Notes: generated by a model not told the origin, from the sequence alone. Counted from the stretch's first letter, positions 24,137 through 64,000 are shown. The stretch: DNA of 64,000 nt from Chloroflexota bacterium (GCA_040007635.1 JBDTUR010000001.1:9205-73204); one strand, 5' to 3'. A program made the numbers and translations.

Positions 24137-24864
24137 ATGGCCCGTATCGTCCGCGGCGCTCTGATCCAGGCAACCTGGACGGGCGACAAGGAATCGATGA
24201 TCCAGAAGCACGAGCAGTACGCCCACCAGGCGGCCAAGGACGGCGCCCAGGTGATGCTGTTCCAGGAGCTCTTCCACGGGCCCTACTTCTGCCAGGTCCA
24301 GGATCCGCAGTACTACTCGTACACGGAGCTGATCCCCGACGGGCCAATCACCACTCTGCCGTCGATGCAAACTGGGGTGTGACCCTCCGCAAGCACGACG
24401 AGTTCTTCATGACCGGCTACCGACGCGGTAGCAGGGCCCGCTGCGGCGCCGATTCAACCGGTTACAAGCTCTTCGCCCTGAGCGCCAAGCGCTGCGCCAA
24501 CAAGGGCTACAACTTCCGCGAGATCCTGCGCGTCTACTACGGCCCGGGCCTCCAGCTGGTCGAGGGCAGTTCGGCCGGGTCGTCGACTTCTGCCGCACAG
24601 GCGCCCAGCGCGCAGTCGCCGGCGGCGGAGCCGTTGACACAGCAAGCGACGACGCCGGCCGTCGACCCGCAACCAGCTCAGCAGGCGCCTGGCGAGCCGC
24701 GCATGTTCGCCTTCCCACCGGCAGATCGCCCAGCGCGCGCCGGCGCCACAAGCGTGTTGGTGGCGCGCGCTCCAGGGCGGTCGCGCAAAACCACGAGACT
24801 CGGCGCCGCGTTCAGCGTCTGGCTGCCTCGGCGTCCAGGGGACGAGGCGCCGGCGAGCGCTTGA
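24137..24864 (+). pseudogene. Mosaic gene remnant made of three fragments, frame-shifted between the first two. Fragment 1 is the 5' 70 codons of the nitrilase gene (about 97% nt identity to 28743-28903). Fragment 2 is a diverged copy of the SpoIID-like C-terminal domain. Fragment 3 is a histidine-kinase C-terminus-like segment (VLVAR...AAFSVWLPRR).
   Basis: My own nucleotide comparison of 24194-24354 vs 28743-28903 (5 mismatches in about 160 nt). Protein similarity of 24379-24560 to 23830-24000. HATPase_c-like ending at 24750-24840 resembling 21660-21720. Confidence 0.55.
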
Positions 24865-41289: not shown

Positions 41290-41640
41290 GCGGCGCAATC
41301 TACAGGTCGTCGAAGCCGAGAATGACCGGCGCGTTGGATAGGCCGGCGTCGACGTAAAGGCGCAGGCCGGCTTCGCCGGCGGCCTGGAGGACCGAGGTCG
41401 TCCTGGTCGCCGTGAATTGCCAGCCTGCTGGTTCCGGCGGGCCGTCAGCCCAGGCCCGGACTCGAATCGTCTGTGGATTAGAGCCGACCACCTGGGCGCG
41501 CAGCCATAGCCAACCGTTCGCGGTGTAGCTGGGCCGGCACCGTGACCGCGGGGCCGAGCGACGACTCGACGTCGTTAACGACCACTCCGGCGCGCACCTG
41601 AACCGCAGCGCTGGGGTCGATGATCACGGCGACTTGACGA
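41290..41640 (-). pseudogene. Truncated, frameshifted remnant of the C-terminal half of the repeated about-210-aa domain, immediately after the stop of the 1790-aa gene
   Basis: Frame a reads ...VIIDPSAAVQVRAGVVVNDVESSLGPAVTVP. Frame c continues ...YTANGWLWLRAQVVGSNPQTIRVRAWADGPPEPAGWQFTAT...GLRLYVDAGLSNAPVILGFDDL*. There is no N-terminal half, no start and no signal peptide. Confidence 0.55.
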
Positions 41641-44600
41641 GGAAATCGTCGAAGTTGAACGTCACCGGTGCGTTGGACAGGCCGCCGCTGACGTAGAGGC
41701 GGAGGCCAACCCCGCCGGCGATTTGGACGGCGGCGTTCGAGTTGGTGGCGCTGTACTGCCAGGAGACTGGCTCGGCTGAGCCGTCGAGCCATGCCTTGAC
41801 GCGGATAGTGGTCGGATTGGTGCCGGAAATCTCGGCGCGCAGCCAAAGCCAGGCATTGGCGGTGTAGGTCAAGCCGGGCACGGTGGCCAGCGCTCCCATA
41901 GCCGACTCGGTGCTGTTCACCACCACCCCGGCCCCAACCTGGATGGTGCCGTTGGGCAAAATGACGAGCTTGGGCCGGTAGGCATTGTTGGCGTTGCGCC
42001 GTGCCTCGCCATAGATGAACAGGTTGCCCGCGCTGGGCAGTTTGTTTACGCGCACCCGGAAGCGGATGTCAACGCTGGTAACCGAGACGGCGTTCAGCAA
42101 TGCGGCGAGGTTTGCGCCGGAGGACGGCGCGACTATGGTGCCGACGCCCGAGCCAACGCCGAAATTGGAACTCGCGCCGTATAGGCCATAGGCGCCGCCG
42201 ATGTTGGCGCTTGCCCAGCCGCCAGTAACCGTGCGGTCGAAGCTGTCGCTGACGTAGGTGGTGAACGTGGGCGGGCTGACGCTGACGAGCTTGGTCTCGC
42301 TGTCCGTGCCGCCGGCGTTCGTCGCCGTAAGCGTCACACTGTAACTTCCAGCACTTGCGTAGGTATGGGCCGGGTTCTGCTGGCTGGAGCTGCCACCGTC
42401 GCCGAAGTCCCAGCTCCAGCCCGTGGGCGACCCAGTGGAGCTATCGCTGAAGTTGACGGTCAGCGTGCCGGGCTGCTGGACCTGGCTGAAATTGGCTACG
42501 GGGAGGGCGACGACCATGACCGTCTTCATTTGGCTGCCGGACCCACCGCCGTTAGTCGCAGTTAGCTTGACGGTGTAGTTGCCGCCACCGGCATAGATGT
42601 GGGACGGGTGCTGCACGCTCGAGCTGGCGCCGTCGCCAAAATCCCAGATCCAGGACGTGGGCGAGCCACTCGACACATCAGTGAACATCACCGCCAAAGT
42701 GTTCGCCTGCTGGGCGAACGAGAAATCGGCAACCGGCGGTATGGGTAGCACCGTCACACTCTTCGTTTCACTGTCCGAGCCGCCCAAGTTGCTGGCGGTG
42801 AGCGTGACGGTATAGTCTCCCGGCGCGACATAGGTATGCGTCGGGTTCCGCTCGGTCGAGCTACCGCCGTCGCCAAAGTCCCAGTTCCACGAGGCGGGCG
42901 ACCCGATGCTGGCGTCATGGAAGTTGGCCGTCAGCGTGCCTGCCTGCTGGGCAGAGGTAAAGTCAGCGAACGGCGGTGGCGGCGGGATGACAACACTCAC
43001 AGACTTGTTCACGCTGGTCGAGCCACCCGCGTTACTCGCATTGAGGGTGACGTTGTAGTTGCCGGACAGCAGGTACACATGGCTCGGGTTCTGCTGCGTC
43101 GAACTTGCGCCATCGCCAAAGTCCCAGTTCCACGACGTGGGCGAGCCGGTTGAAGCGTCGGTGAAGTTCACGGTCGTACCGCCGGACTGCTGGGCAAACG
43201 TGAAATCGGCAACCGGCGCGGGGAGCGAGACAGTAACCGTTTTGGTGACGGTGCCAGGGCCACCGGAGTTGGCCGCGGTGAGCGAAACGCTGTGACTACC
43301 GGACGCCGCGTACGTGTGCGACGGGTTCTGCAGAGTCGAGCTTGTGCCGTCGCCAAAGTTCCAGCCCCAAGAGGTGGGCACGCCGGTAGAGGTGTCGGTG
43401 AAGTTGACCGTCAGCGTGCCGGGCTGTTGCGCGAACGAGAAGTTGGCTACGGGAGTAGCCGGCGCCACGGTTACCGCCATGGTCGCGGTGCTTGAGCCGC
43501 CGGCATTGCTGGCCGTTAACGTAACCGTATAAGCACCCGTTGCGGCGTAGGTGTGCGACGGGTTCTGCAGAGTCGAGCTTGTGCCGTCACCAAAGTTCCA
43601 GTTCCAGCCAGCGGGCGAGTTAGTCGATGTGTCGGAGAAGTTCACCGTCAGCGTCGCAGGCACCTGGCTCGAAGCGAAACTCGCGGTGGGTCGCGTGATT
43701 GGTGCTCCGCCGGTTGAACGCACGAGGTAGTCGTCGAAATTGACGGTAAAAGGCACGTTGGTCGCGCTCGTGTAGAAACGAAGGCCCACTGTCCCGGCCG
43801 TCCGAACGGCCGCGTTGGAGTTGGTTACGGCGTACTGCCAGCTGGCGGGTTCAGCCGCGCCGTCCGCCCAGACCTTCATTCGAATGGTCGTAGGGCTGGC
43901 TCCGGAGACCTCGGCGCGCATGCGCAACCAGGTGTTCGGAGCGTAGGTCAGGCCGGGGATTGTCATTGCGTTCGCAACCGACGATTCGCTGCCATTGACC
44001 ATCACGCCCACGTGGGCCTGGACGGCGCCTGCCGGCGTGATCATGATCTTGGGCCGATACGCGTTGCCGCCGTTGCGCCTCGTCTCCGCGTAGATATAAA
44101 GATTGTCGCCCACAGGAAGCTTGCGTGCCCGGACGCGAACGTTCATGTCCAGGTCACGCGTCTGGACGTCGCCCAGAAGCGCAGAACCGGCGTTGCCCTT
44201 GATGGACAACAGCATCGCCGCCATCCCGCCACCGACGCTATAGGCGACGGGCGTGGGCTCAAGGTAGTAGGGACCGCCGACGTCGGCCATGCCCCAGTGG
44301 TCGCCGATCGTCCTCTCGAAGCTGTCTGCGGCAAGAACCGTGCCCGGCGCCAGTGGATTGACCGTGACAGTCTTGGTGATGCTCTGCGAGCCAGAGTCGC
44401 TGGTCACCGTGACGGTCGCGTCATAGGTGCCAGCCCCGTAAGTCCAGCTGGGATTCTGGAGCGAGGACGTGCCTCCGTCCCCGAAGGTCCACGACCAAGC
44501 ATAGGGAGAACCGCTCGAATTATCCGCGAAATCGATAGTCAAAGTGCCGACTTTCTGGCTCCAGTTGAAGTCGGCCGCTGGCAGCACTGGCGGCCCACCG

Positions 44601-47080: not shown

Positions 47081-50000
47081 CTACAGCCCCTTGACCAAGA
47101 AGTCATCGAACTTGAACGTGACAGGTGAGTTGCTGACTGCACCCCCCAAGTAAACTCGGAAGCCTACGGCACCCGCCGTTTGCAGGGCGGCGCTTGAGTT
47201 GGTCGCGGTGAACTGCCACGACGTGGGTTCAGGCGAGCCGTCGGCCCAGGCCTTGACACGAATCGTCGTTGGATTCGTGCCTGTCACCTGGGTGTGCACC
47301 CAGATGAAGCTGTCGGCGATCTGGGTTAGCCCGGGCACCACCACTGAACCGAAACCAGTCTCGGAGTTGCTGACCAGCATGCTGGCCGAAACGCTCACCG
47401 TCCCGTTGGCGTTGAGGATGAGACGCGGGCGGTACTCGTTGTTGCCATTCTGCCTGGACACCGCGTAGACGTAGTAGCTGCCGCCGGCGGCAACCTTGTC
47501 CACCTGTACCCGGAACGTGATGTCGAGGTCGAGCTGGGAGACGCCGCCCAGGATGGCCGCGCGACCGGCTCCGGCGTTCGGCAGGACAATGCTGCCCATG
47601 CCGCCGGCCACACTGAAGTTGGCCGTGTTGCCGGTCAGGGTGTAGCTGCCGCCGGTGTCGGCCGTGCCCCAGCCGCCGTTGACGGTCCGGCCAAATGCAT
47701 CCGCGGCGTAAGTAGGCGGTCCCGTCGGAACAACGGTGACCCACTTGGTCGTGCTGGTTGCGCCACCCGCGTTGGTAGCCGTCAGCTGGACTGTGTACGT
47801 GCCAGCCGCGGCGTAAGTCTTGCTGGGGTTCTGCAGCGTGGATGTGGTGCTGTCCCCGAAGTCCCAGCTCCAGCCTGTGGGGCCGCCGCTGGACGCATCG
47901 GCGAAGTCAACGGTCAACGTGTTTGGCACCTGTTGCCACGTGAAGTCAGCCGTCGGTGGCGGTGGCAATCCGGCGCCCGGATCGCCGAAAACCTCATAGT
48001 CGTCGAAGGTGAAGGTAACCGGAGCATTGTTGACGGCGGATGCCACGAAGACGCGCAATCCAACCGAGCCGGACGTCTGCAACGCGGCCGCCGAGTTGGT
48101 GGCTGTGTATTGCCATGCTGCCGGCTCCGCGTCGCCGTCCGCCCAGGCCTTGACTCGGATCGTGGTTGGGCTGGTGCCCACCACCTCGGCGCGAACCCAG
48201 ACATAGCCACCGACCGTCTGCATCAGACCGGGCACGACCACGGCTGATCCGATCGCAGATTCGCTGTTGTTGACCACTGAGCTGGCCTGAACCGAAACGG
48301 TGCCATTGGCGTTCATGACGATGCGCGGGCGATACTCGCTCGTGCCATTGCGCCGGGTGACGGCGTAGACGAAGTAGGCACCACCAGAGGCCACCTTGTC
48401 GACGCGAACGCGGAAGGTGAGGTGGACGTTCTGCTGGTTGACGTTGCCCAAGACGACAGAGCGAGAATTGCCGGCCGAGTTCACGACGATGCTTCCAGCG
48501 CCCGACCCCACGCTGTAATTCGACAAAGTGCCACTGGCGGCATACGGGCCACCCGTGTCAGCGGTCCCCCAGCCATTGCTGACCGTCCGCTCGAAGGAAT
48601 CTGAGGCGTAAACCGGGGCCGGCAAGAGCGGCGCAACCGTCACCGTGTGGGTCTCGCCATCGGCGCCGCCCAAATTGGCGACCGTAAGGCTGACCAGATA
48701 GTCACCCGCCGCGGCATAGGTGTGAGACGGGTTCTGGTCAGTGGAGGTGGCGCCGTCGCCGAAGTCCCAACTCCAACTGTCAATCGATCCGGTAGACGTG
48801 TCACTGAAGGCCACGTCGAGCGTGTTGACGGCTTGGCTCGATGTGAAACTGGCTACGGGCGTTGTGGGCGCCGGGTACTTCGCAACAAAGTCGTCGAAAC
48901 CAAACGTGACCGGGGCGGTAGTGGCGGCGGAACCGACAAAGCTCCTTAGCCCAAGAGCGCCAGGCACCTGGAGGCTGGCTGTAGAGTCGGTCCCGGTATA
49001 GTTCCAGGCTGCCGGCTCGGCGGTGCCGTCCGCCCAAGCCTTGACCCGGATTGTCGTGGGGTTCTGACCAGTCACCTGGGCACGCACACGGATGTACGTG
49101 TTCGCTATCTGCGCCAGACCGGGCACGGTGACGGTCGAGCCGATCGCGGTTTCGACACCGTTGACTTCCGCACTGGCATGCGCCTGAACGGTTCCGGTCT
49201 GAGTGAGCAGGATCCGGGGACGATACTCGTTGCTGCCGTTGCGCCGGACAACTGCATACACGAGATAGCTGCCGCCGGCTGCGATCTTGTCGACCTTGAC
49301 TCGGAAACTGATATCGACGTCGTCCTCGGAAATGCCATCGAGGATTGCCGAGCGCGTGTTGCCTGCCGCGGGCACAATCATGTCGCCCACGCCCTGGCTC
49401 GTGTTGTAGTTGCCGGCGGTCACCTGCAGCGAATACGCGCCGCCCACGTCGGCATCGCCCCAACCACTGCCAAGGCTGCGGCTGAACGAGTCGGCCGCGA
49501 ACAGGCCGCCCGGCGGTAGCGGTGGCGGCACCGACACGCTTATCTGCTTGGCCTCGGAATCCGAGCCGCCCTGGTTGGTGGCTGTAAGCGTCACGGTGTA
49601 CGTGCCGGCTGCGGCGTAAGTGTGGGCGGGGTTTTGCTGCGAAGACGTGGGCGTGCCGTCACCAAAGTTCCAGCTCCGCGAAGTCACGACAGCGGTCGAG
49701 GCGTCGGTGAAGTCGACTATCGTGCTGTAGGCCCGCTGTCCCCATGCGAAGTCCGCCACGGGCGGTTGTGGCGGTGACGCAGCAGAAACCAGAACGTTCT
49801 GGGTCAGCTCTGACGTGTTGTCGTTAGTAGCGATCTGAAGGGCCGTGACACGATCACCGGCCGCGAGCGCGGAGACGGGCAGCTGCCATGCACCGCCGGA
49901 GACGACCGCCGAACCGAGATATTCGGTCGGCAAGCCTACGAGCCCGGCAGCGCGATCGGCGCGGTATACCTCAACCGTGGCGCCCTCGATGCCGGTGCCG

Positions 50001-52384: not shown

Positions 52385-53443
52385 TTAGGCGGCGGGAAAG
52401 ATGCCGAAGACCGCACTCAACCCGTAGGGCTCTAGCAGGATCTGTGCGACCAATTGCCGCGTCCTAAGGTCATAGCAGCCAACGTGGGTCCCGAAGTCGC
52501 GCTTCAGGCCGCGCAGGACCCAGCCCACGTTCTCACGGAACTTGGTTGGCCGTATGCGTGAAAACCCAACCCACGCGTGGTCGCCGTCGATCAGCAGGCC
52601 GCGCGCCCAACCGAGCAGCATGTCAGGAGGATGCGCGCTGGTAAGATCGATGACCTCGACGACCTTGAGGCTCACGATGTCGGCGATTACCAACTGTCCG
52701 TTGACCGTCGTGAAATAGGCGCGTCCGTCCGCAACGATACCGTCGTGCAATCGCTCCAGGCCGATGTCGATCCGCCTCGATGGATCGACGAGCGAAATAG
52801 CGTCTCGTTGCTCAAAGCGCGTGGCCCATGGCTCGTTGCCGATGTAGAAAACGTGGTTGGGGTGGGCATAGTGTGGCTTCGTGGTCTTCACTCGCCGATA
52901 GTCGACGTCGCGCGAGAATCGTGCCCAGGGATCCTCGCCCAGTACATTCCAGTTATGTACGACTTCGCCGGCCCGGGTTACCTCGACAACACTGTCCAGA
53001 CCGGTATTGGCAACCAGCAGGTTTCCCTCTGGCGTGGGCCGGACGTGGTGAACGTCATTGAACATCGGCAGCGAAACATAGGCCAGTCTCTCGAACGAGG
53101 GCAGCCTATAGACCATCACTTCTGTCTGGGTACATATATAGAGACGATCGCCGTCGAGTGTGCCCGACTTGAATAGGATCGCGGGCTGCTCCTCCGCGGT
53201 AGCCTCGGGTGGTGACACATACTCCACGGCCGTTCTCGCCTGGCCCGTTGTCGTGTCCAGTTCGAGAATGATCGCCTTCTGGTATTCATACCAGCCGCCA
53301 CCCATGCCTACTGACATTGGACGCAGCGTTCTTTGCTGGCCGCCGGCAACATAAAGTCGGCGAGCGGGGGGATGCTCAAGCTCGGCCGGAAGTTGGGTAG
53401 AAGCCGCGGCAGCTTGCCCTACCGGCGTCGTTTCTAGGGCCAT
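52385..53443 (-). CDS. Hypothetical protein, possibly beta-propeller (NHL/SMP-30-like repeats), no signal peptide
   Basis: Repetitive strand-like segments (LLVANTGLDSVVEV, LVIADIVSLKVVEV); 352 aa. Confidence 0.4.
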   Translation of the reverse strand: MALETTPVGQAAAASTQLPAELEHPPARRLYVAGGQQRTLRPMSVGMGGGWYEYQKAIILELDTTTGQARTAVEYVSPPEATAEEQPAILFKSGTLDGDRLYICTQTEVMVYRLPSFERLAYVSLPMFNDVHHVRPTPEGNLLVANTGLDSVVEVTRAGEVVHNWNVLGEDPWARFSRDVDYRRVKTTKPHYAHPNHVFYIGNEPWATRFEQRDAISLVDPSRRIDIGLERLHDGIVADGRAYFTTVNGQLVIADIVSLKVVEVIDLTSAHPPDMLLGWARGLLIDGDHAWVGFSRIRPTKFRENVGWVLRGLKRDFGTHVGCYDLRTRQLVAQILLEPYGLSAVFGIFPAA

Positions 53444-53464: not shown

Positions 53465-54403
53465 TCAAGGCTGGTCTGTAGTTGCCGCAAGCAGCCCGCT
53501 GAAAGCGAACTCGTAGGGCGAACCGACGGTCCTGAGACCCGCGAGGGCGGAGAGGCCCACCGATCCGCTGCCCTGCAGGCTGCCGGTCCAGTCGATCACC
53601 GCGAAGTGCCAATAACTCGGCTCCTCCTGACCATCCTCCCACGTTCGCACGCGAACCAAGGTGGGATCGCTTCCAGTTGCCTGGGCTCTCAGCCAGATCA
53701 GCTTACCCGGGGTGACCCTCACGTCAGGGGCAAGCACCTCCCTGCCTAGCGACTGTGATCCGCCTGCCAACAGCAAGCCCACGTGGGCAAATACGGCGCC
53801 ACCGGCATCGATGCGGATCCTGGGCCGGTAAGCCAGTCCCGCGACGGTCGACCTCAGCAGTGCGTACACAAACAAAGATCCTTCGCCCTGTGGCAGCTCA
53901 TCGACTCTGACCCCGAACTTGATGTCGACGTCGCGCGCCGACACGGTGGGCAAGACGACGCTCCCCGTAGCGCCGGCGATCGGCAAGGTAACTAGCCCGT
54001 TGCCCGTTTCAACCCCGAAGCGTTCTACGCCGACGCTGGTCGAGTACTCTCCGCCAACCTCAGCCGCACCCCAACCATCATCAACGGCTCGCGAGAAAGT
54101 ATCGCTCGCGATGACGACAGACGGCCCCACAACGATGGGCGACCCCTGTGGGTGTGTGTCGGGCGTCCGCGCCGCCGGTGACACCGGTCCCGGGGCGGGC
54201 GTCCGCGGTGCGGCAAACGTCGCAGGATCCAGCCAAGCGGGCGCGAGAGCAGAGACAACGAGCAGGGTTACCAGCACGATCGACTTGTCTGACCAGGGCA
54301 GCGTTCTGACGCGCCGCATGGGAGCCGCACTATGACGGCGGGCGCGCATTAACAGGTCCGGCCCGTGGGATGGCGGCTGCTCCGAGTCTCCTGACGTACC
54401 CAA
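53465..54403 (-). CDS. Membrane-anchored protein carrying a single copy of the novel about-210-aa domain
   Basis: TM SIVLVTLLVVSALAPAWL, then DTFSRAVDDGWGAAEVGGEY...AYRPRIRIDAGG...TLVRVRTWEDGQEEPSYWHF. Confidence 0.6.
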   Translation of the reverse strand: MGTSGDSEQPPSHGPDLLMRARRHSAAPMRRVRTLPWSDKSIVLVTLLVVSALAPAWLDPATFAAPRTPAPGPVSPAARTPDTHPQGSPIVVGPSVVIASDTFSRAVDDGWGAAEVGGEYSTSVGVERFGVETGNGLVTLPIAGATGSVVLPTVSARDVDIKFGVRVDELPQGEGSLFVYALLRSTVAGLAYRPRIRIDAGGAVFAHVGLLLAGGSQSLGREVLAPDVRVTPGKLIWLRAQATGSDPTLVRVRTWEDGQEEPSYWHFAVIDWTGSLQGSGSVGLSALAGLRTVGSPYEFAFSGLLAATTDQP

Positions 54404-54529: not shown

Positions 54530-57500
54530 TCACGGCGTCGTCACGACGAAATCGTCGAAGCTGACCGTAATCGGCCAGTTGGCGATGCTGTCCACATAAG
54601 CACGCACGCCGACCGCGCCGGCAGTCTGGAGCACAGCAACCGAGTTGGTTGCGGTGAACTGCCACGCGCTCGGCTCGGTCTGACCGTCCGCCCAAACGCG
54701 GAGCCTAATCGTGGTCGGGCTGGCGCCGGTGATCTCAGCGCGTAGCCACAGCCAGGAATTGGCGCTGTAGGTCAGGCCGGGCACGACGACCGCTGGCGCG
54801 ATTGACGACTCTGACCCATTGACTACGGCGCCGGCATGGACCATTACGCTGCCGTTGGAGTTGATGATCAGCTTGGGCCGGTAGGCGCTGTTAGCGTTGC
54901 CCCGCACCTCGCCGTAGACGTACAGCTGGTGACCAGTGCTGGGCAGCTTGTTGGCGCGCACTCGGAAGAGCACCTTGACGTCCCTGGCGCTGGCGTTGTT
55001 GAGCCGCGTGGCTCGGGTTGTCCCGCCGCTGGGTAGCACGATGTTGCCCACCCCCGCGCCAACGCTGAAGTTGGTTGCCGTGCCGTCAAGTGTGTAGGCG
55101 CCGCCCAGAGTGGCTGAACCCCATCCGTTGGAGACGGTGCGCGTGAAGGAGTCGTTCGCAATGGCGGCGGACGACGGCTGCTGCACACCGACGGTCTTGG
55201 TGACGCTGTTCGAGCCACCGCCGTTGCCTGCCGTAAGGGTGACGCCGTATGTTCCCGGAGCAGCGTACGAATGCGACGGATTCCGAGTCGTTGAGGAGGC
55301 GCCGTCGCCGAAATCCCAGTTCCACGAGGTCGGCGAATTGGTCGAGGCGTCATCGAAGTTGACGCTCAGCGTGCCCTGCTGCTGGCTGAACGCAAAGTCG
55401 GCCACCGGCGGCGGTGGTGACCCACTACTGGCCGTTGCCCAGACCGGCGCCGAGGGTATCGATTCGTTCCCAGCACCGTCGAGGGCGGTTACAACATAGC
55501 GATATTCGGTCCCGTTCAGCGCCGTGGTGTCGACGAAGCTCGGCTGACCCAGCAGAGCACCGTTGAGTGGACCGGTCGTGGTGACTGCCCCGCGCGAGTC
55601 GTGGCACGCTTTGCTGCCCGTGTCGGTGAACGTCTTGCCCGCCTGGGGCATCCACTGCCAGTCATATGCAGCAGATCGCAGCGTCAACTTGAGCACGCCA
55701 TAGGAATCGTCGTTTCGAACCTCGCTGTTGGCAGTCGGCGTGCCCATTGAAGCGTGGCTCTCGCCACCCGTGCCCACGACGAATTGGCGGATACCTCGGA
55801 CGGTATCAAGCGCGCCGAGATAAGTCTGCGGCGCGAAGCGTTCGTAATTGTGTGTATGGCCTGTGAGCACCAGGTCCGCGCTGCCCTCGTAGAGCGCCTT
55901 GAACAGCGGCCGCACATACTCGCTCGGCGTGTGGGACGTCCCCGAAGTGAAGAGGGGCTCGTGCCAGATGGCCAAGGTGCAGGTATTGGTATGACTTGCA
56001 AGCTGGACTCTCAGCCACTGTTCCTGTGCCGATCCGGCATAGCAGCCGCCAACGTACGAGCACTCGCTGTTGAGTACCAAGACGAGCCACGAGCCCAACT
56101 GAAAGCTGTAGTAGCCCTTGTCACGGTCGCCGGCAATCGCGCCGAAGTAGTCGAAGTAACCGGCGGCCCCTGGGGTGTTGTACTCGTGATTGCCGATCGT
56201 CGGAAACGTGCGCGCCCAGTGGCGCCCCCAGGATGGCTGATAACACTGCCGGAACTCGTTGAGCGCGCCGTTGTCATAGACGTTGTCGCCGCTTGTCCAC
56301 ACCCAACCGGTGACATTGTCGAGCAGCTGCGCAGTGGCCTCATCGCCCGCTGTGCCGCAGCCCGCGATGTCTCCCGCGCCAGTGAAGGTCTGCGGGGAGA
56401 CGCTGGGCACCCCATCTCGATAGACTCGGTATCCGGCCGCGCCGGCAACCGGTTGCCATGACAGTTGGATCTGACCGTCCCCAGGAGTCGCCGTAAGCCC
56501 AAGCGGGCTCCCCGGCGGCGCCAACGGTGGGTCGACTGTCATCGTCCGCGTCACCTCGTCCGAGCCGGCGCCGTTCGACGCGACCAGCGTGACGAGGTAA
56601 GTCCCCGATGTGGCGTACGTATGCGTGGCGTTCTGAGAGCTCGAAGCCTGGCCATCGCCGAAGTCCCACGACCACGATGTGGGTCCGCCGGTGGAGGTGT
56701 CGGCAAACCGAAGCTCGCGCGACCAGGGCAGCTGCGCATGGTCGAAGTCCGCCGTCGGCGCAACTGGAGGACTTGATTGCGGTGGCGTTGCCAGGTAGTC
56801 GTCGAAGCCGAAAGTGACTGGCGCGTTGGTGGCACTGCTGCTGTTGTAGGCGCGAAGTCCGACGCTGCCCGACGACTGCAGCGCCGCGGACGAGTCGGCG
56901 GCGACGAACGTCCAGCCAACCGGTTCAGGTTGTCCATCGGGCCACACCCGACTGCGAATCGTGGTCGGATTGGTGCCCTCGAACTGTGCGCGGAACCAGT
57001 ACCACGTGTTGGCGCTGTGGGACAACCCTGGGATTTGCGTCCAGTTGCCAAATCCGGTGCCTGCACCGTTCAGCACGCGCTGCGCACGCAAGCTGATACT
57101 GCGGTCCGACGCAAAGAGGATCTGAGCGCTGTATTCGGAATTGCTGGCCAGGTGTCGCCGAGCAACCACGTATCCGATCTGCCCGGCTCCCGTAGCGATC
57201 TTGGACGTTCGGACACGTACGACCACATCCACGTCCAGGGCTGACACGGCTTCCAACGTTGCCGCCCTCGCGGCTCCGGCTGTCGGCAGAGCGACCAGGC
57301 CTGTCGACCCATCGGCCGAAAAGCTCGACGATCCGGCGTGGGTGTAGCTGCCGCCGACGTCGGCGGTACCCCAACCGCCGCTCGCGACCCGCGAGTAACT
57401 GTCAGCAGCGAATGTGACACCGGTGGACGCCTGGCCGCCAGTGGCCGGCGGCCCGGTTACCAAGGCCTGCGCGGCGGTCGCCGGCAAGCCAAGACCCAGA

Positions 57501-57616: not shown

Positions 57617-57829
57617 ATCCGTCCTATGCGGACCCCCGCTTGCGCAAGTTGGGGTGATTGATGGCTAAGGGCCGCACGAGCACCCGCTGAAGGGTTGACA
57701 GTTGGCAACGGCGACCGCTGGGCGTGAAGAATGGCGGGGCCTCTCGCCTCGACAGTGCCACCCAATGGCGCTAGCCTCCCGGCTCGTTGGGACTACCCTG
57801 CGCCGTAAGTCAACCAACCAGGGACCGAC

Positions 57830-58864
57830 ATGACCACTCTCATCCGAGCCAAGGCGCCTCTACGCATCAGCTTTGCCGGCGGCGGCACGGATGTTTCACC
57901 TTTTCCCCAGATGGAAGGCGGCTGTGTGCTCAGCTCCACCATCGATCGTTACGCATGGGGCACTCTCCGGCCACGCAGCGACGGTCAGATCCGCATCGAA
58001 TCGCTCGACTTTGGCGTCTCCCTCAGTTATGGCTCGCGCGAGGCGCTGACCTACGACGGCCAGATGGATCTGCCCAAGGCAGCAATCAAGCGCCTCGCGG
58101 GCGATCACCAGGGCGGTTACGACCTGTTTCTTCATACGGACGCGCCGCCTGGATCGGGCCTCGGCTCATCGTCGGCGATGATGGTCGCTTTGGTTGGCCT
58201 ACTCAAGGATTTCCACGGACTCCCGTTGACCGACTATGAAGTCGCCGAACTGGCGTACGCCATCGAGCGGGTCGACCTGGGGATCCAAGGCGGTATGCAG
58301 GATCAGTACGCGGCGGCGTTCGGCGGCTTCAATTTCATCGAGTTCCTGAGCGACCGCGTCGTCGTCAATTCGCTCAAGATCAGTCCCGACATCGCCAACG
58401 AGCTCGAGTACAACATGTTGCTCTGTGACACGGGGCGGGTGCGACTGTCCGCGCACATCATCGAGGATCAGGTGCGTCGCTACGAGGACCGCGACGCTGA
58501 CACCATCTCCGCGTTGCGCGACCTTAAGGCGCTGACGACAGAGATGAAGAACGCGCTGCTGCGCCGGAATCTGGACGAATTCGGGGCACTACTAGACCTT
58601 GAGTGGCAGCACAAGAAGCGGATGTCGAACCGAATCTCGAGCCCGGAGCTGGACGAGCTGTATGACATCGCCCGACGCGAGGGTGCGCTGGGCGGCAAAA
58701 TCACCGGCGCTGGCGGCGGGGGCTACATGCTCCTGTATTGCCGCTTCGACCGCAAGCACGCCGTGGCGCAGAGGCTACGCAGCCTGGGCTGCGAGATCCA
58801 GAAGGTGGCGCTCGAACCCCTGGGACTCCAGACATGGCGCGTCAACGGAGCCGATGGCGACTGA
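57830..58864 (+). CDS. hddA: GHMP-family sugar kinase, D-glycero-alpha-D-manno-heptose 7-phosphate kinase (HddA-like)
   Basis: LRISFAGGGTD and PPGSGLGSSSAMMVAL GHMP motifs. Sits with gmhA/gmhB/hddC. Confidence 0.75.
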   Translation: MTTLIRAKAPLRISFAGGGTDVSPFPQMEGGCVLSSTIDRYAWGTLRPRSDGQIRIESLDFGVSLSYGSREALTYDGQMDLPKAAIKRLAGDHQGGYDLFLHTDAPPGSGLGSSSAMMVALVGLLKDFHGLPLTDYEVAELAYAIERVDLGIQGGMQDQYAAAFGGFNFIEFLSDRVVVNSLKISPDIANELEYNMLLCDTGRVRLSAHIIEDQVRRYEDRDADTISALRDLKALTTEMKNALLRRNLDEFGALLDLEWQHKKRMSNRISSPELDELYDIARREGALGGKITGAGGGGYMLLYCRFDRKHAVAQRLRSLGCEIQKVALEPLGLQTWRVNGADGD

Positions 58865-59450
58865 CAAGCCCGGCCGGCGGGCGGTCTTCCTCGACCGCGA
58901 TGGGGTCATAAACCACAAGCCGCCCGATGGTGCATACGTTCGCTCGTGGTCCGAGTTCAGATTCCTGCCCGGTGCCCTCACGGCGCTGGCGGAGCTCCAC
59001 GCCAGCGGGGCTACTCTGCTGCTGGTGACAAATCAGCGCGGAGTCGCGCGCGGCCTGATCCGGCCTACCGATCTTGCGAAAATCCATGCCCAACTGGTCG
59101 CCGAACTGGCCGCCGTGGAGGTGCAGCTGGGCGGCATCTACGTCTGTCCCCACGATGCCGGCGAATGCGACTGCCGCAAGCCGGACGTGGGCCTCTTCCT
59201 GCGCGCCCAGCGCGAGCATCCCTGGATCTCTTTTCCGAACTCCGACCTGATCGGCGACTCGTTGACGGACCTAGAGGCCGGGCGGCGACTGGGCATGCGC
59301 TTATGGCTTGTGGGCGACAACGAGCATGCCGCTGCTACCGAACGCGACGCGCAAGCACGGGCCTACATCCTGGAGGGACGCGCACCGTCGCTGCTCGAGC
59401 TCGTTCGCCACGGCGGCCTGCTGTATGGCGCGGAAGGCAGCGGCCGATGA
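58854..59450 (+). CDS. gmhB: D,D-heptose 1,7-bisphosphate phosphatase (HAD superfamily, GmhB)
   Basis: AVFLDRDGVIN HAD motif I; CxC...C zinc site (CPHDAGECDCRKP). ATG at 58854 overlaps the hddA 3' end. Confidence 0.8.
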   Translation: MATDKPGRRAVFLDRDGVINHKPPDGAYVRSWSEFRFLPGALTALAELHASGATLLLVTNQRGVARGLIRPTDLAKIHAQLVAELAAVEVQLGGIYVCPHDAGECDCRKPDVGLFLRAQREHPWISFPNSDLIGDSLTDLEAGRRLGMRLWLVGDNEHAAATERDAQARAYILEGRAPSLLELVRHGGLLYGAEGSGR

Positions 59451-60610
59451 TCGGCAGGGACGGACGCAGGCGCAGCGTTGTCGTCGTCGGCTCGGGTACG
59501 CATTTCCTAAGCGGCATCAGCATCTACTCCGTGCGCCTGGCAAACGCCCTTGTCGAGCGCAACCGAGTGGGCCTGATCACCATGCGTCGCCTCATCCCGG
59601 CCAGGCTGTATCCGGGTTGGAAGCGGGTCGGGGCCGACCTGACCAAGTTGGACCGCGACCAGCGCGTGGCTGTCTTCGACGGCATCGATTGGTACTGGCT
59701 GCCGAGCATGCTGCGGGGGGCCTGGTTTCTGCTGGGTAGGCGACCGGACGTTGTCATCTTCGAGTGGTGGACCGGCACCGTCCTGCACAGCTATGTCGCG
59801 CTGGCCCTGCTGGCCAGGCTGTGGCGCGCCAAGGTCATTGTCGAGTTCCACGAGATCATTGCGACAGAGGAGCTGCGCATCGCGCCAGCTCGGCGCTACG
59901 TGCGGGCGGTGACGCCCATCATGATGCGTCTGGCTCATGCCTTCGCCGTCCACTCGGACTTTGACCGGCAGCTCGCCATCGATACATGGTCGGTGGGCAA
60001 CCGTCCGCTGGCTGTGCTGCCCCACGGCCCGCACGACCACTACCAGAGCGATGCCACGCGTCTGGAACGTTTGCGTGAAGCGCCCGACGAGACATTCAAC
60101 TTGCTCTTCTTCGGCGTCATCCGCCCCTACAAAGGCCTGGAGGACCTGGTGCGGGCCTTCGAGGCCATTCCGGAAGGTGAGATCGGGCGTTACTGGCTCA
60201 CGGTTGTCGGCGAGACATGGGAGGGCTGGGCACTGCCCTCGGAGTTGATCGCGCGTAGTCCTCGACGAGACCGCATCACGCTGATCAACCGCTACGTGAC
60301 CGACGCCGAGCTGCACGGTTATCTCAGGGGCTCAGACGCGGTCGTGCTGCCGTATCTGCGTTCCTCGCTCAGTGGGCCGCTCCACGTGGCCATGGGCTAT
60401 GGGCTGCCAATCGTCATGACGGACGTTGGCGGCAATGCCGAGGCTGCCAATGGCTACGAGGGGATCACGCTCGTTCCACCTGGCCAGCCCATGGCGCTCA
60501 TGGAAGCCATCAAGCGAGTGCCTGCGCTCGCTGGCAGGCGATTCGCACATCCCCACACGTGGGCACAGACGGCGGACGCGTATGAACGGCTGATTGAGCA
60601 GCTCGACTAA
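59447..60610 (+). CDS. Glycosyltransferase family 4 (retaining GT-B)
   Basis: C-terminal GT4 EX7E-like region (LPYLRSSLSGPLHVAMGYGLPIV). ATGA overlap with gmhB. Confidence 0.75.
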   Translation: MIGRDGRRRSVVVVGSGTHFLSGISIYSVRLANALVERNRVGLITMRRLIPARLYPGWKRVGADLTKLDRDQRVAVFDGIDWYWLPSMLRGAWFLLGRRPDVVIFEWWTGTVLHSYVALALLARLWRAKVIVEFHEIIATEELRIAPARRYVRAVTPIMMRLAHAFAVHSDFDRQLAIDTWSVGNRPLAVLPHGPHDHYQSDATRLERLREAPDETFNLLFFGVIRPYKGLEDLVRAFEAIPEGEIGRYWLTVVGETWEGWALPSELIARSPRRDRITLINRYVTDAELHGYLRGSDAVVLPYLRSSLSGPLHVAMGYGLPIVMTDVGGNAEAANGYEGITLVPPGQPMALMEAIKRVPALAGRRFAHPHTWAQTADAYERLIEQLD

Positions 60611-60691
60611 GGGTCAGTACACTTCGAGAGTGAGCAAGACCGAACGGATCACGGTTGGCACTGGCGAGAAAAGGGCGTCGGTAACGGCCGG

Positions 60692-61312
60692 GTGACGTCG
60701 ACGAGCGGCGAAGCCAGAGCTGACCTCGCCGAACACTTCCGCCGGCAGATCGAGGCAAGCGTCCAGGCGAAGAGTGCCCTGCTCGAGGACCTGGGCGAAT
60801 GTGTCGCCGTCGCCAGCGAACTGATCGACGCTTACCGCAGCGGACACGCCTTGCTCCTATTCGGCAACGGCGGCAGCGCCGCGGATGCACAGCACATCGC
60901 CGCCGAGTTCCTGGGTCACTTCTACCTCGAACGCCCGGGGGTGGCGGCCCACGCCCTGACGGTCAACACTTCGGCGCTAACTGCGATCTCGAATGACTAC
61001 TCCTTCGATGCCGTTTTCGCACGTCAGCTGGTGGCGATTGGCCGCGCCGGTGACGTGGCTGTAGGCATCTCGACCAGCGGCAACGCGGCCAACGTCATCG
61101 AGGGGCTGCGCGCAGCTCGCCGAGCGCGCATGGTCACTGTCGCGATGACCGGTGCTGACGGCGGCCGGGCGAAGGAAGAGGCGGACCACTGGGTGCGAGT
61201 TCCGTCGAACGACGTGGCCCGCATCCAGGAGAGCCACATCATGATCGGCCACATCTGGAGCGAGTTGGTCGAGGCCGCACTCTTCGGTCCCGAAAAAAGA
61301 CGCTCCGGCTAG
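60692..61312 (+). CDS. gmhA: D-sedoheptulose 7-phosphate isomerase (SIS domain, GmhA)
   Basis: LLFGNGGSAADAQHIAAEF..., SIS fold; 206 aa. Confidence 0.85.
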   Translation: MTSTSGEARADLAEHFRRQIEASVQAKSALLEDLGECVAVASELIDAYRSGHALLLFGNGGSAADAQHIAAEFLGHFYLERPGVAAHALTVNTSALTAISNDYSFDAVFARQLVAIGRAGDVAVGISTSGNAANVIEGLRAARRARMVTVAMTGADGGRAKEEADHWVRVPSNDVARIQESHIMIGHIWSELVEAALFGPEKRRSG

Positions 61313-62028
61313 CTCCGGGCTGCGACGCGCAGCAGTGGGCCGGGCGAGCGGTGAAGGCGCAGGTAGTCCTCTGGTACTCCGATGTCGACGAAAGCACCTT
61401 GGAAGGCCACCCCGTGAAGCCCGTGGCCGACCAGGGAGGGGAAAATCTCACGCTCGAGCGAAACCGGTCGATCGGGAGCGATGAGATCAAGGATCGTCCG
61501 TTCGAGCACGTATATCCCGCCGTTTATCATCGACCCTGCGTCTGCGTCGGCGGTCTTTTCGGAGAATTCCTCGATTCGCTCCCCTTCTCCCAGCCTTACG
61601 GTCCCGTAGCGCCTGGCGTTATCGACGCGAGCGAGAGCGATGGTCGCCATCGCCCCGCTGCCAACGTGGGAATGCACAGCCAGCCCTATGTCGATGTCAA
61701 AGAACGAATCGCCGTTCATAACCAACCAGCGATCACCGCTCAGGAGCGGCTCGGCGAACTTGATCGCCCCTGCGGTACCGCGCGCCTCCGGTTCCTGCGA
61801 GTAGCGCAGCTCCAGGCCCATTGATTCACCGCGTCCGAAGTGGGTCATCACGAGTTCTCCCAAATGCCCGGTGCAGAGCACGACCTTGCGATACCCCTGG
61901 CCTCGGAGTTGGATGAGCAGGTACTCGAGGAATGGGCGGCCCGCAATCTCGACCATGGGCTTGGGCAGGTCGCGTACCAAAGGGCCAAGGCGAGTGCCCA
62001 GGCCTCCGGCTAGGATGACCGCGTGCAC
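61309..62028 (-). CDS. hddC: Sugar-1-phosphate nucleotidyltransferase, D-glycero-alpha-D-manno-heptose 1-phosphate guanylyltransferase (HddC-like)
   Basis: MHAVILAGGLGTRLGPLVRDLPKPMV nucleotidyltransferase signature; 239 aa, no C-terminal isomerase domain. Confidence 0.75.
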   Translation of the reverse strand: MHAVILAGGLGTRLGPLVRDLPKPMVEIAGRPFLEYLLIQLRGQGYRKVVLCTGHLGELVMTHFGRGESMGLELRYSQEPEARGTAGAIKFAEPLLSGDRWLVMNGDSFFDIDIGLAVHSHVGSGAMATIALARVDNARRYGTVRLGEGERIEEFSEKTADADAGSMINGGIYVLERTILDLIAPDRPVSLEREIFPSLVGHGLHGVAFQGAFVDIGVPEDYLRLHRSPGPLLRVAARS

Positions 62029-62165
62029 TGCTGTCCTCCCAATGGTCCAACTCCGGCCAATGATTCTCCGTCCGCTGGCGTCATTGTGGCGCTCGTCGCG
62101 ATGCGCCGCGGCGAGCCGAGGGCAGGCGTGTCAGGGCGCTGACGGCGGACTGGCCGAATGAACAC

Positions 62166-63272
62166 ATGATCATGCCTACAGGGGTGCGGCTCCTCTTGGT
62201 CGCGCCCAACGCATTTCCGGTGATGGGCGGCCTGGAAACGCACCTCAACGAGGTGGCGCCGCGTATAGCGAGGGCCGGATTCGAAGTCACCATCCTGACC
62301 ACCGATCGGACCGGCCTGCTCCCAACGGCGGAGCTCCGCGATGGAGTCCGCATTGAGCGTGTGCGGGCCTACCCGTCGCGAAGTGACTACTACTTCGCCC
62401 CGGCCATTTACCGTCGAATAAGGCAGGGAAAATGGGACCTTCTCCACTGCCATGCATATCAGACGCTGGTCCCGCCACTGGCCATGCTCGCAGCAGCGCG
62501 GTCTGGCATTCCTTTCGTGGTGACGTTTCACAGTGGTGGTCACGGCTCACGACTTCGCAACCGCTTTCGTTCCACCCAGCTTCGACTGTTGAGCCCACTC
62601 CTCAGGCACGCCCGTCGTCTAATCGCGGTATCTGAGTTCGAAGCCTCGACCCTGCCTGCGAGACTGGGGGTCCCGGCGAGCAGATTCGTGATCATTCCCA
62701 ACGGCGCAGAGATCGAGTTGCCGGCCGATCAGCCGGCGCCTGCGGAGGATCCGGGCCTCGTCTTGTCGGTCGGTCGACTGGAACGGTACAAGGGCCATCA
62801 TCTGGTCATTGCCGCGTTACCGCACGTCCTCGCAGACATCCCGGACATTCATCTCCTGATCGTCGGCAGCGGGCCGTACGAGGCCGAGCTGCGGCGCTTG
62901 GCCGAATCGTATGAGGTGGCCGACCGCGTTGAGATACGCAGCATTCCACCCACAGATAGATCGGGCATGGCGTCAACGGTGGCACGCGCGGGTTTGGTCA
63001 CGTTGCTCAGCGCCTACGAAGGAAACCCCGTCTCGGTTATGGAGGCGCTCGCCCTGCGTCGTCGAGTTCTGGTCGCTGACACCTCAGGGTTGAGCGAGCT
63101 AGGCAGGCGTGGACTGGCTCACGTGATACCGCTTGACAGCTCGCCGACGGCAATCGCTCGCGCCATCGTGGAGCAACTGCGCTCGCCCGCTCCGGCAGAT
63201 TTCAGATTGCCGACCTGGGATGGTTGCGCCGCGAAGCTCGTCGAACTGTACAGGGACGTATTGACGGGCTGA
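62166..63272 (+). CDS. Glycosyltransferase family 4
   Basis: LLLVAPNAFPVMGGLETHLNEV N-terminal GT4 pattern; 368 aa. Confidence 0.75.
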   Translation: MIMPTGVRLLLVAPNAFPVMGGLETHLNEVAPRIARAGFEVTILTTDRTGLLPTAELRDGVRIERVRAYPSRSDYYFAPAIYRRIRQGKWDLLHCHAYQTLVPPLAMLAAARSGIPFVVTFHSGGHGSRLRNRFRSTQLRLLSPLLRHARRLIAVSEFEASTLPARLGVPASRFVIIPNGAEIELPADQPAPAEDPGLVLSVGRLERYKGHHLVIAALPHVLADIPDIHLLIVGSGPYEAELRRLAESYEVADRVEIRSIPPTDRSGMASTVARAGLVTLLSAYEGNPVSVMEALALRRRVLVADTSGLSELGRRGLAHVIPLDSSPTAIARAIVEQLRSPAPADFRLPTWDGCAAKLVELYRDVLTG

Positions 63273-64000
63273 TGCGCATCCTGATGCTCTCAGACATGTA
63301 CCCGCCGTATATCGGTGGAGTGGAGCAGCACGTGCGCAACCTCAGCCGAGGCCTGACCCAGCGTGGTCATGCCGTGACAGTGGTTTCGATGCATCACCCG
63401 GAGCGCGCCGAGGTCGCGGACGAGGACGGGGTCCGCGTTCACCGTCTGCGCAGCACGGCATGGCGGGCCACCTCGCTGCTCGGCATGGGTGGTCGTCCCT
63501 ATTCCCCTCCCTTGCCGGATCCGGCGGTCATGCGGTCGCTGCGCCGCATCATCAAAGCCGATCGGCCAGAGATCATCCACGCCCATAACTGGATGGTGGA
63601 TTCGGTCGTGCCGCTGAAGGCTTGGAGCAAAGCAAGGTTGGTCTTGACGCTTCATGGCTACGACATGACCTGCGCGAAACGAAGCCTGATGTACTACTCC
63701 CGCGAATGCACGGGGCCGGGGTTTTCGAAGTGCCTCAGGTGCGCCGCTTCAAACTACGGTGCGGCCAAGGGGATGACGATCACTATCGGGAACTGGCTGA
63801 CGCGCGGCGGACGACGGTCGGCCGTTGACATGTTCCTCCCCGTTAGCCATGCGGTTGCGGTCGGCAATGATCTTGAACGCCTCCGCCTCCCATTTCAGGT
63901 CCTGCCCAACTTCGTACCCGACGACGTGGCACAGGCCAGCGCGCCGTCGGATTACGGGTCGCTGCTTCCGGAGGGGCCTTTCTGCCTGTTTGTCGGAGCG
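63272..64000 (+). CDS. Glycosyltransferase family 4. The 5' end is in the window; the 3' end runs off the right edge.
   Basis: My own translation gives MRILMLSDMYPPYIGGVEQHVRNLSRGLTQRGHAVTVVS... The ATG overlaps the previous stop (CTGATG). The ORF track does not list it because it runs off the window. Confidence 0.7.
   Translation, partial: MRILMLSDMYPPYIGGVEQHVRNLSRGLTQRGHAVTVVSMHHPERAEVADEDGVRVHRLRSTAWRATSLLGMGGRPYSPPLPDPAVMRSLRRIIKADRPEIIHAHNWMVDSVVPLKAWSKARLVLTLHGYDMTCAKRSLMYYSRECTGPGFSKCLRCAASNYGAAKGMTITIGNWLTRGGRRSAVDMFLPVSHAVAVGNDLERLRLPFQVLPNFVPDDVAQASAPSDYGSLLPEGPFCLFVGA

Follow-up and report, generated by a model that had tools for sequence, protein, structure and literature searches.

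A 64,000-nucleotide stretch of DNA from a Chloroflexota bacterium (GCA_040007635.1, JBDTUR010000001.1:9205-73204), called the window in what follows, carries at one end a set of genes predicted to encode the GDP-heptose pathway together with three GT4-type glycosyltransferases. Open reading frame (ORF) listing, translation and analysis of the guanine-plus-cytosine (GC) content by codon position were used for gene finding in the region 57830-64000, and revealed seven genes whose products belong, in order, to the GHMP kinase, HAD, GT-B/GT4, SIS, NTP_transferase, GT4 and GT4 families of Pfam (Table 1). An earlier note on this DNA had placed seven genes at these coordinates, and an independent gene caller applied to the Logan assembly contig L001, which contains the identical region and continues for 5.8 kb beyond the end of the window, gave identical calls. 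The start/stop overlaps described in that note, among hddA, gmhB and the first glycosyltransferase gene and between the last two glycosyltransferase genes, are present as well, and a giant surface-protein cluster with a Wzx-type flippase gene indeed adjoins on the minus strand (37274-57616). A point absent from the note is that hddC lies on the minus strand and is convergent with gmhA. In the case of GT4-2 the start is ambiguous, being 62166 in the Logan call (368 aa) and 62223 in the NCBI record (349 aa, from Met20), and GT4-3 runs past the end of the window. Since these are coding sequences with strong family matches, chance is not an issue here.

Table 1. Features of the putative heptose and glycan-assembly locus, its surroundings and the adjoining secreted-protein genes. 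Positions refer to the window unless contig L001 is named.
Feature	Position	Strand	Basis or remark
hddA-like GHMP kinase	57830-58864	+	NCBIfam HddA, PDB alignments, motifs
gmhB-like heptose-1,7-bisphosphate 7-phosphatase, HAD-IIIA, 198 aa	58854-59450	+	11-nt overlap with hddA
GT4-1 ('GT1'), divergent GT-B glycosyltransferase, 387 aa	59447-60610	+	ATGA overlap with gmhB
gmhA, predicted sedoheptulose-7-phosphate isomerase, SIS, 206 aa	60692-61312	+	81 nt after GT4-1
hddC-like heptose-1-phosphate guanylyltransferase, 239 aa, single NTP_transferase domain	61309-62028	-	3' end overlaps gmhA 3' end by 4 nt
GT4-2, canonical GT4 with EX7E, 368 aa	62166-63272	+	Pfam
GT4-3, N-terminal 242 aa inside the window	63272-64000	+	TGATG, 1-nt overlap with GT4-2
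GT4-3, full protein, 407 aa	L001:11107-12330		End at window-equivalent 64495
Beyond the window: P-loop NTPase-like (216 aa), methyltransferase-like ORF, FkbM-type methyltransferase, DUF1616 membrane protein, sulfotransferase	L001:12345-16612		Window-equivalent ~64510-68777
Promoter-like element TCGACA-17 nt-TAGCCT	57749-57777	+	53 nt upstream of hddA start
Secreted PKD and metallophosphoesterase protein, 1028 aa	54530-57616	-	ConA-like module at both ends; Pfam, module mapping
Secreted or anchored protein, 312 aa	53465-54403	-	One ConA-like module; no Pfam/NCBIfam match; module mapping
Predicted beta-propeller 'hyp352', highly conserved, 352 aa, no signal peptide	52385-53443	-	AlphaFold2; NCBI: 310 aa, ABI725_00265
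Secreted PKD protein, 1699 aa	47081-52180	-	Three ConA-like modules; Pfam, module mapping
Secreted PKD/beta-helix protein, 1790 aa	41624-46996	-	Two ConA-like modules; Pfam, module mapping
Wzx-type (MOP superfamily) flippase, 472 aa	39756-41174	-	~10 hydrophobic segments; Polysacc_synt 52 bits, MatE 27
Secreted beta-helix protein, 732 aa, left locus border	37274-39472	-	Pfam Beta_helix, NosD, Pel9A-like
Pro/Thr/Ser linker, 43 aa (beta-helix protein aa 259-301)	38570-38698	-	AAATSSPAPTQPPAPTPSPTQPPTPSPTSPPNPTAPPGSNPYY
ConA-like module copies	38687-39316, 41627-42250, 43712-44341, 47084-47707, 48005-48613	-	
Further ConA-like module copies	48881-49501, 53468-54118, 54533-55162, 56789-57418	-	

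Enzyme families were assigned from Pfam and NCBIfam profile scores, sequence comparison with PDB entries and inspection of motifs. The kinase scored 278.5 bits over the full length of the NCBIfam HddA model, the next models being fucokinase with 118 bits and mevalonate kinases and galactokinases with at most 98 bits. It carries the Pfam domains GHMP_kinases_N and GHMP_kinases_C and is of the GHMP (HddA) type, not of the PfkB/ribokinase type of HldE or HldA, and it displays the motifs PPGSGLGSS and GAGGGG. End-to-end alignments were obtained with the heptokinase structures 3k85, 4usk and 4n3o at 225-267 bits, compared to less than 93 bits for other GHMP kinases; the heptokinases matched are those of Bacteroides thetaiotaomicron, Burkholderia pseudomallei (WcbL, 4usk, 249 bits) and Campylobacter jejuni (HddA, 4n3o, 225 bits). 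In the earlier note it had been argued that a kinase grouping with galactokinases or mevalonate kinases would make the heptose assignment wrong; the NCBIfam margins and the full-length alignments with HddA and WcbL place it with the heptokinases, and on the same score margins fucokinase, galactokinase and mevalonate kinase are excluded as identities of this protein.

For the phosphatase, the NCBIfam GmhB model PRK08942 gave 137 bits and HisB 71 bits, and the GmhB structures 4pnh, 3l8h and 3l8e were matched with 79-97 bits. The sequence contains the motifs DRDGV, CPHx6CxCRKP, corresponding to the zinc loop, and GDSLTD, and a HisB-type histidinol phosphatase is excluded by score and context. Similarly, the isomerase, which matches Pfam SIS_2 with 79 bits, reached 187 bits with the NCBIfam phosphoheptose isomerase model and 176 bits with TIGR00441 (cut-offs of 276 and 209, respectively) versus 124 bits for DiaA, and an identity as DiaA is likewise excluded by score and context. 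Family scores, structures and motifs agree with the view, already put forward in the earlier note, that the enzyme set is that of the GDP-heptose (HddA/HddC) route rather than that of the ADP-heptose (HldE) route.

The nucleotidyltransferase matches Pfam NTP_transferase with 142 bits and consists of a single domain of 239 aa without the C-terminal domain or extension of ManC-type enzymes. Besides GGLGTRL, it shows from residue 79 the motif EPEARGTAGA, in which the glutamate aligns with Glu80 of the Yersinia enzyme, while the motif has otherwise diverged from EXXPLGTGGA (AR for PL and TAGA for TGGA). In the structure of Yersinia HddC this glutamate selects guanine, and uridylyltransferases have a glutamine at that place (PMC6981941). 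The two proteins share 32% identity over 216 aa (6jq8). Gene context was studied by a scan with the kinase, which gave 34 genome loci (one genome per species) and 14 metagenome loci. Of the 34 genome loci, 17 have a homologue of this nucleotidyltransferase immediately upstream of hddA, as do 6 of the 14 metagenome loci, and in 15 of the genome loci gmhA follows immediately downstream of hddA. The operon hddC-hddA-gmhA(-gmhB) recurs in Acidobacteriota, Methylomirabilota, Myxococcota, KSB1, Patescibacteria, Bacillota and metagenome-assembled genomes (MAGs) of Chloroflexota. In a neighbour-joining tree, the protein of the window falls inside the clade of hddA-adjacent homologues, and this clade groups with Yersinia HddC rather than with Arabidopsis GMPP1 (bootstrap values of 62-73%). 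The nucleotidyltransferase is likely, but not proven, to be HddC, and the strongest evidence for this is the gene context.

All three glycosyltransferases scored above the Pfam gathering scores for Glyco_transf_4 and Glycos_transf_1 (GT4-3 at full length). For GT4-1 the values were 66 bits with Glyco_trans_1_4, 55 bits with Glycos_transf_1 and 31.5 bits with Glyco_transf_4, the latter barely passing the gathering score of 28.5, for GT4-2 they were 113 bits with Glyco_transf_4 and 82 bits with Glycos_transf_1, and the N-terminal part of GT4-3 gave 75 bits with Glyco_transf_4. According to an alignment of the three sequences, the EX7E motif is intact in GT4-2 (aa 285-293), only its second glutamate is present in GT4-3, and GT4-1 has neither glutamate. 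At this place GT4-1 displays RSSLSGPLHVAM (aa 302-323), which is invariant across 10 members of a family that comprises at least 2310 members; a PDB sequence search with GT4-1 gave no match. GT4-1 follows hddA or gmhB in Limnocylindria-like loci. Because its gene is translationally coupled to hddA-gmhB, GT4-1 is the best candidate for a heptosyltransferase.

An alignment of GT4-1 was used for a reciprocal scan of metagenome contigs, which yielded 80 loci. Of the 17 loci in which GT4-1 identity was at least 60%, 13 had adjacent heptose genes, short flanks notwithstanding. Among 24 well-flanked loci (at least 2.5 kb on either side, GT4-1 identity of 50-61%, GC content of 45-73%), 3 carried heptose genes and 21 had none within 6 kb; homologues of GT4-2, GT4-3 or DUF1616 were present in 21 of the 24. 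Frequent companions of GT4-1 are a small GT2-family enzyme (31 of the 80 loci) and a protein of 640-845 aa that matches no Pfam family and has about 11 hydrophobic segments (32 of the 80), and the loci also hold Wzx and sometimes the P-loop protein. A module consisting of small GT2, GT4-1, GT4-2, the 640-845-aa protein with about 11 transmembrane (TM) segments, DUF1616, GT4-3, P-loop protein and Wzx occurs on many metagenome contigs with or without heptose genes (for example in L057:2720-13038, L109:5240-12517, L009:2069-8619 and L065; contig GC content of 45-73%). Colinearity of the heptose genes with GT4-1, the ~640-aa membrane protein, DUF1616, GT4-3, P-loop and Wzx is seen in L057, L009 and L065, the full order in L057 being GT2, hddC, hddA, gmhB, GT4-1, membrane protein, DUF1616, GT4-3, P-loop and Wzx. 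As judged from the heptose-gene counts across the GT4-1 loci, the heptose pathway is often, though not universally, inserted into a conserved module for glycan assembly. Between the Wzx of the window and those of distant module loci no orthology was detectable, and an NCBIfam search with DUF1616 and the proteins hyp352, hyp312 and hyp220 gave no match. In the literature on DUF1616, a Haloferax DUF1616 protein is merely listed as an N-glycoprotein.

The loci closest to that of the window (79-83% HddA identity) are found in MAGs labelled Candidatus Limnocylindrales or 'uncultured Chloroflexia'. The GC content of the window (60-70%) is in line with that of Candidatus (Ca.) Limnocylindria, for which 68.9% GC and a median genome size of 2.39 Mb were reported (PMC10608941). 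Judged from its DNA, the host is a Ca. Limnocylindria-like Chloroflexota bacterium. Since Chloroflexota are counted among the monoderm lineages without a lipopolysaccharide (LPS) outer membrane (PMC10608941), a role of the heptose in an LPS core is unlikely.

We consider it likely that, within a cell-surface glycan locus, the segment is the part that provides for nucleotide-sugar supply and for assembly in the cytoplasm. From the identities, order, coupling and conservation of the genes, and following the established pathway (PMC10680097, PMC5387315), we infer a four-step scheme for the enzyme activities. GmhA would convert sedoheptulose-7-phosphate to the 7-phosphate of D-glycero-D-manno-heptose, HddA would phosphorylate C1 in the alpha configuration leading to alpha-heptose-1,7-bisphosphate, GmhB would remove the 7-phosphate to give alpha-heptose-1-phosphate, and HddC would convert the latter to GDP-D,D-heptose. 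The sugar probably stays D,D-heptose, because no epimerase or 4,6-dehydratase gene is located nearby. In the close relative L002 a gene of the GDP-mannose-4,6-dehydratase family, none of which occurs in the window, lies directly upstream of gmhA (L002:1016-2011), and that genome may continue to 6-deoxy-heptose or make GDP-deoxyhexoses. GDP-heptose would then be used by GT4-1 and/or the other adjacent GT-B enzymes for the formation of a lipid-linked oligosaccharide, which the Wzx-type flippase would export. The genes for a methyltransferase and a sulfotransferase past the end of the window suggest a methylated or sulfated glycan, and their products may decorate it; the methyltransferase-like ORF past GT4-3 is a weak match on the opposite strand. 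The three GT4 genes and DUF1616 form part of the glycan-assembly module, which is widely conserved and in this lineage has the heptose genes embedded in it. A role in secondary metabolism, as for aminoglycoside-type heptoses, was rejected, as no biosynthetic-cluster genes are present in the neighbourhood.

Several observations weigh against this assignment. All four enzymes fall short of the equivalog cut-offs set by NCBIfam (278 of 600 for the kinase, 137 of 178 for the phosphatase, 187 of 276 for the isomerase and 149 of 300 for the nucleotidyltransferase), which is why their NCBI names are generic only; we read these scores as reflecting distance from the seed organisms and not a different function. 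The best NCBIfam model for GmhB is of the beta-type, the anomer preference not being readable from sequence. With regard to the glycosyltransferases, the 21 well-flanked loci without heptose genes, whose GT4-1 homologues are mostly at 50-56% identity, mean that the GT4-1 family is not bound to heptose in its donor specificity. No priming transferase, polymerase or ligase was detected in the window and its 5.8-kb extension by Pfam and NCBIfam searches and inspection of sizeable ORFs, and the search of the first 37 kb of the window for these functions returned unrelated metabolism, regulators and a helicase-nuclease only. The ~640-aa protein with 11 TM segments of related loci could fill a Wzy- or priming-type role. 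Finally, by score alone the nucleotidyltransferase is slightly nearer to mannose-1-phosphate guanylyltransferases, Yersinia HddC has itself been assayed with mannose-1-phosphate (PMC6981941), which makes the boundary between mannose and heptose specificity a soft one, and the grouping with Yersinia HddC is supported by 62% in a neighbour-joining tree with three reference sequences.

If the nucleotidyltransferase were a mannose-1-phosphate guanylyltransferase that provides GDP-mannose to GT4 mannosyltransferases, the assignment of the activated sugar as heptose would be wrong or incomplete. GDP-mannose is a common donor of GT4 enzymes, and farther relatives of the glycosyltransferase module have no heptose genes nearby. 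The best profile and structure scores point in the same direction: NCBIfam gave 191 bits with the mycobacterial ManB_Rv mannose-1-phosphate guanylyltransferase model, over its N-terminal two thirds, versus 149 bits with HddC, and with PDB entries about equal scores of 124 bits for GMPP catalytic domains and 112 bits for Yersinia HddC were obtained. However, the matches with the mannose enzymes span only the shared N-terminal catalytic domain, and the C-terminal domain is missing here. Also, in many phyla the closest relatives of the nucleotidyltransferase have a fixed place directly upstream of hddA, and without HddC the kinase, phosphatase and isomerase that would make heptose-1-phosphate would be left with no activating enzyme. 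We therefore regard the mannose alternative as very improbable. The earlier note had named a clear preference for other sugar-1-phosphates by sequence class, such as a mannose-1-phosphate enzyme with a C-terminal extension, as what would speak against HddC; such an extension is lacking and the guanine-selecting glutamate is kept, whereas the best NCBIfam and PDB scores do go to the mannose-1-phosphate enzymes.

On the other side of hddA, five genes encode secreted proteins of 312-1790 aa with signal-peptide-like N-termini and no recognisable covalent anchor. Nine copies of a module of ~210 aa, which has no Pfam or NCBIfam match, are distributed over the five proteins, and in the four large ones the module is found at the C-terminus. 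Its consensus reads DSFxRTVxxGWGxADVGGxY...NAYRP...PTTIRVKxWADGxxEPxxWQY...PVTFxFDD. An AlphaFold2 model of the module with a predicted local distance difference test (pLDDT) value of 85, obtained from an alignment 9 sequences deep and as the only confident one of five models, suggests a jelly roll like that of concanavalin A (ConA), and Foldseek matches comprised CBM66, GH16 glucanases, legume lectins, the carbohydrate-recognition domains of ERGIC-53 and Emp46 and a carbohydrate-binding module of phage Dit. In the 732-aa protein an N-terminal ConA-like module is followed by the 43-aa Pro/Thr linker, the only long one in the locus, and by a pectate-lyase-like beta-helix. Serine and threonine together account for 18-20% of the secreted proteins, and N-glycosylation sequons occur in them at the expected frequency and are not enriched.

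Between these genes lies that for hyp352, for which 1628 homologues were found, the top 120 of them at 64-86% identity, an unusual degree of conservation, and all named hypothetical. The AlphaFold2 model (pLDDT of 85) predicts a beta-propeller with many invariant histidine, aspartate and arginine residues. Because Foldseek gave generic propellers only, the best being 3no2 (function unknown), no function can be proposed for hyp352; a PDB sequence search gave no meaningful match. In relatives hyp352 is situated between the PKD genes and hddA; it adjoins hddA in 7 genome loci, and in L046 and L053 its gene is the next one after that of GT4-1, with both on one strand.

In Limnocylindria-like loci (L003-L008 and L035), hddA(-gmhB)-GT4-1 is divergent from the hyp352, hyp312 and PKD genes, and a Wzx homologue is present at the corresponding place in L035. 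L002 displays a compact order of gmhA, hddC (opposite strand), GT4-2, GT4-3, P-loop, sulfotransferase, beta-helix, PKD and hddA-GT4-1; the sulfotransferase gene adjoins the beta-helix gene in L002 and in L035. Altogether, at least 9 genome loci and 4 metagenome loci have the heptose/glycosyltransferase genes next to secreted-protein genes. That the linkage survives rearrangement speaks for a functional tie between the glycan genes and the secreted proteins, without distinguishing between proteins that carry, bind or act on the glycan.

In the earlier note it had been proposed that the giant PKD/beta-helix proteins or a surface polysaccharide are heptosylated. A heptose glycan covalently O- or N-linked to these proteins, as in the glycosylation of the Aneurinibacillus S-layer, would suit the persistent neighbourhood of the two groups of genes, the position of the wzx gene among the secreted-protein genes and the high Ser/Thr content. 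When O-glycosylation-prone linkers were looked for, the beta-helix protein was found to possess one in its Pro/Thr-rich stretch, a kind often O-glycosylated, but the other four proteins have short linkers only, and the sequon frequency gives no hint of N-linkage. In the window and the 5.8-kb extension no gene was found for an oligosaccharyltransferase (Wzy_C/PglL/WsaB-like, STT3/PglB-like or PMT), an SLH or S-layer protein, an ABC transporter or a priming enzyme such as a phosphoglycosyltransferase, the GT4 enzymes are not heptose-specific companions, and conservation of a neighbourhood in related genomes can be inherited synteny. We judge the covalent linkage to these proteins to be unlikely.

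Since a lectin-like (ConA-fold) module is common to the secreted proteins, these may be binders of the glycan and not its carriers. The glycan would in this case be a wall-associated polymer or a glycolipid to which the five proteins dock non-covalently in an SLH-like manner. All five share the same unclassified module, which modelling and Foldseek group with carbohydrate-binding folds, and they have signal peptides, no recognisable covalent anchor and genes that are conserved neighbours of the glycan genes. However, the fold match is generic (TM-scores of 0.5-0.6 at 10-18% identity, with enzymes included) and stems from the single confident model and its shallow alignment. The modules could also bind environmental polysaccharides, and the lyase-like beta-helix and phosphoesterase partners would suit secreted degradative enzymes. 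Docking to the glycan is thus again an unlikely, if conceivable, arrangement. A still bolder and rather more doubtful proposal places the heptose genes in a widespread envelope-glycan machine made up of GT2, the GT-B enzyme without EX7E, two GT4, the ~640-aa protein with 11 TM segments, DUF1616, P-loop and Wzx; in Limnocylindria its wall glycan would dock the proteins with ConA-like modules, and the cytoplasmic, very highly conserved beta-propeller would be an extra component of the pathway. If this were true, it would amount to a new cell-surface display system in a major uncultured soil and freshwater lineage, from a phylum for which the absence of an LPS outer membrane is described. The remaining probability falls to other acceptors or to a looser relation of the neighbouring proteins.

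The pathway predicted here is the known GDP-heptose route of C. jejuni, Yersinia pseudotuberculosis, B. pseudomallei and Aneurinibacillus thermoaerophilus, in a new and phylogenetically distant instance from an uncultured lineage. In C. jejuni the four-step pathway has been established biochemically (PMC10680097). The same four enzyme families with the same predicted chemistry are present in both cases, and the genes lie inside a surface-polysaccharide locus. However, C. jejuni is a diderm with LPS and borrows its GmhB from the LPS cluster, whereas in the window gmhB belongs to the locus itself and shares an overlap with hddA, hddC is encoded on the opposite strand, heptose-modifying enzymes are missing and the phylum is described as having no LPS outer membrane. 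The kinase resembles B. pseudomallei WcbL by score, and the nucleotidyltransferase resembles Y. pseudotuberculosis HddC in its single-domain architecture, guanine-binding glutamate and overall identity; in contrast to the window, where no such genes occur, the Yersinia and Burkholderia pathways run on to 6-deoxy-heptose via a GDP-heptose 4,6-dehydratase and a reductase.

For the S-layer glycan of A. thermoaerophilus, the GDP-heptose pathway is cited in PMC5387315 and the presence of heptose in PMC2943079. Like the presumed host, A. thermoaerophilus DSM 10155 is an LPS-free bacterium, and it has D,D-heptose in its surface glycan. The analogy to an S-layer glycosylation locus drawn in the earlier note did not withstand a comparison of gene content, as an S-layer gene, the ABC transporter Wzm/Wzt, a WsaB-type oligosaccharyltransferase and a WsaP-type enzyme are all missing from the window and the extension, and a Wzx-type flippase is found instead. 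Because these defining genes were sought and not found in the available sequence, beyond which the locus continues, it is not of the S-layer glycosylation (slg) type. With Wzx/Wzy-dependent loci it shares nucleotide-sugar genes, several GT4 genes, a MOP-family flippase and tailoring methyl- and sulfotransferases, but searches of it gave neither a phosphoglycosyltransferase nor Wzy nor a chain-length regulator, while related loci have the ~640-aa protein with 11 TM segments and DUF1616.

Ca. Limnocylindria (= Ellin6529) is a common class of soil and freshwater for which no cultured member is noted in PMC10608941. Given a median genome of ~2.4 Mb, the secreted-protein and glycan locus of ~30 kb would take up more than 1% of a genome of this size and probably shapes the cell surface. 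Compared with the generic names of the public record, the prediction of GDP-heptose is more specific, and it extends the few LPS-free users of D,D-heptose by one phylum, an incremental gain, since the pathway itself is textbook knowledge. More potential novelty than in the heptose genes lies in the lectin-like module, in the conserved beta-propeller and in the conserved multi-glycosyltransferase module, which has two unclassified membrane proteins; all three are uncharacterised.

A gap of 213 bp separates hddA from the divergently transcribed secreted-protein genes. The promoter-like element within it (Table 1) matches once in the whole window, and in an alignment of hddA upstream regions from 7 genomes TTGAC-N17-TAGCGT/TAGCCT was found at the matching place in five relatives. 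A generic scan for sigma-70 promoters and terminators between 57400 and 64000 gave nothing over a shuffled background. Positions 57696-57716 upstream of hddA read TTGACAGTTGGCAACG, and the GGCAACG contained therein is common to relatives. On the basis of its conservation, TCGACA-N17-TAGCCT is a candidate promoter or operator.

Scans of the whole window with Rfam and for tRNA genes revealed no RNA family and no tRNA. Genes to the left of position 37274 encode an amidohydrolase, a luciferase-like oxidoreductase, aminotransferases, a two-component system, a cyclase, oxidoreductases and an AddA-like helicase-nuclease, all unrelated to the heptose locus. Among them, at 24812-28374 on the minus strand, a gene for an adenylate/guanylate cyclase with a zinc ribbon and AAA_16 (458 aa) overlaps the start of a 751-aa ORF without Pfam match, and this pair, too, appears to be unrelated to the heptose locus.

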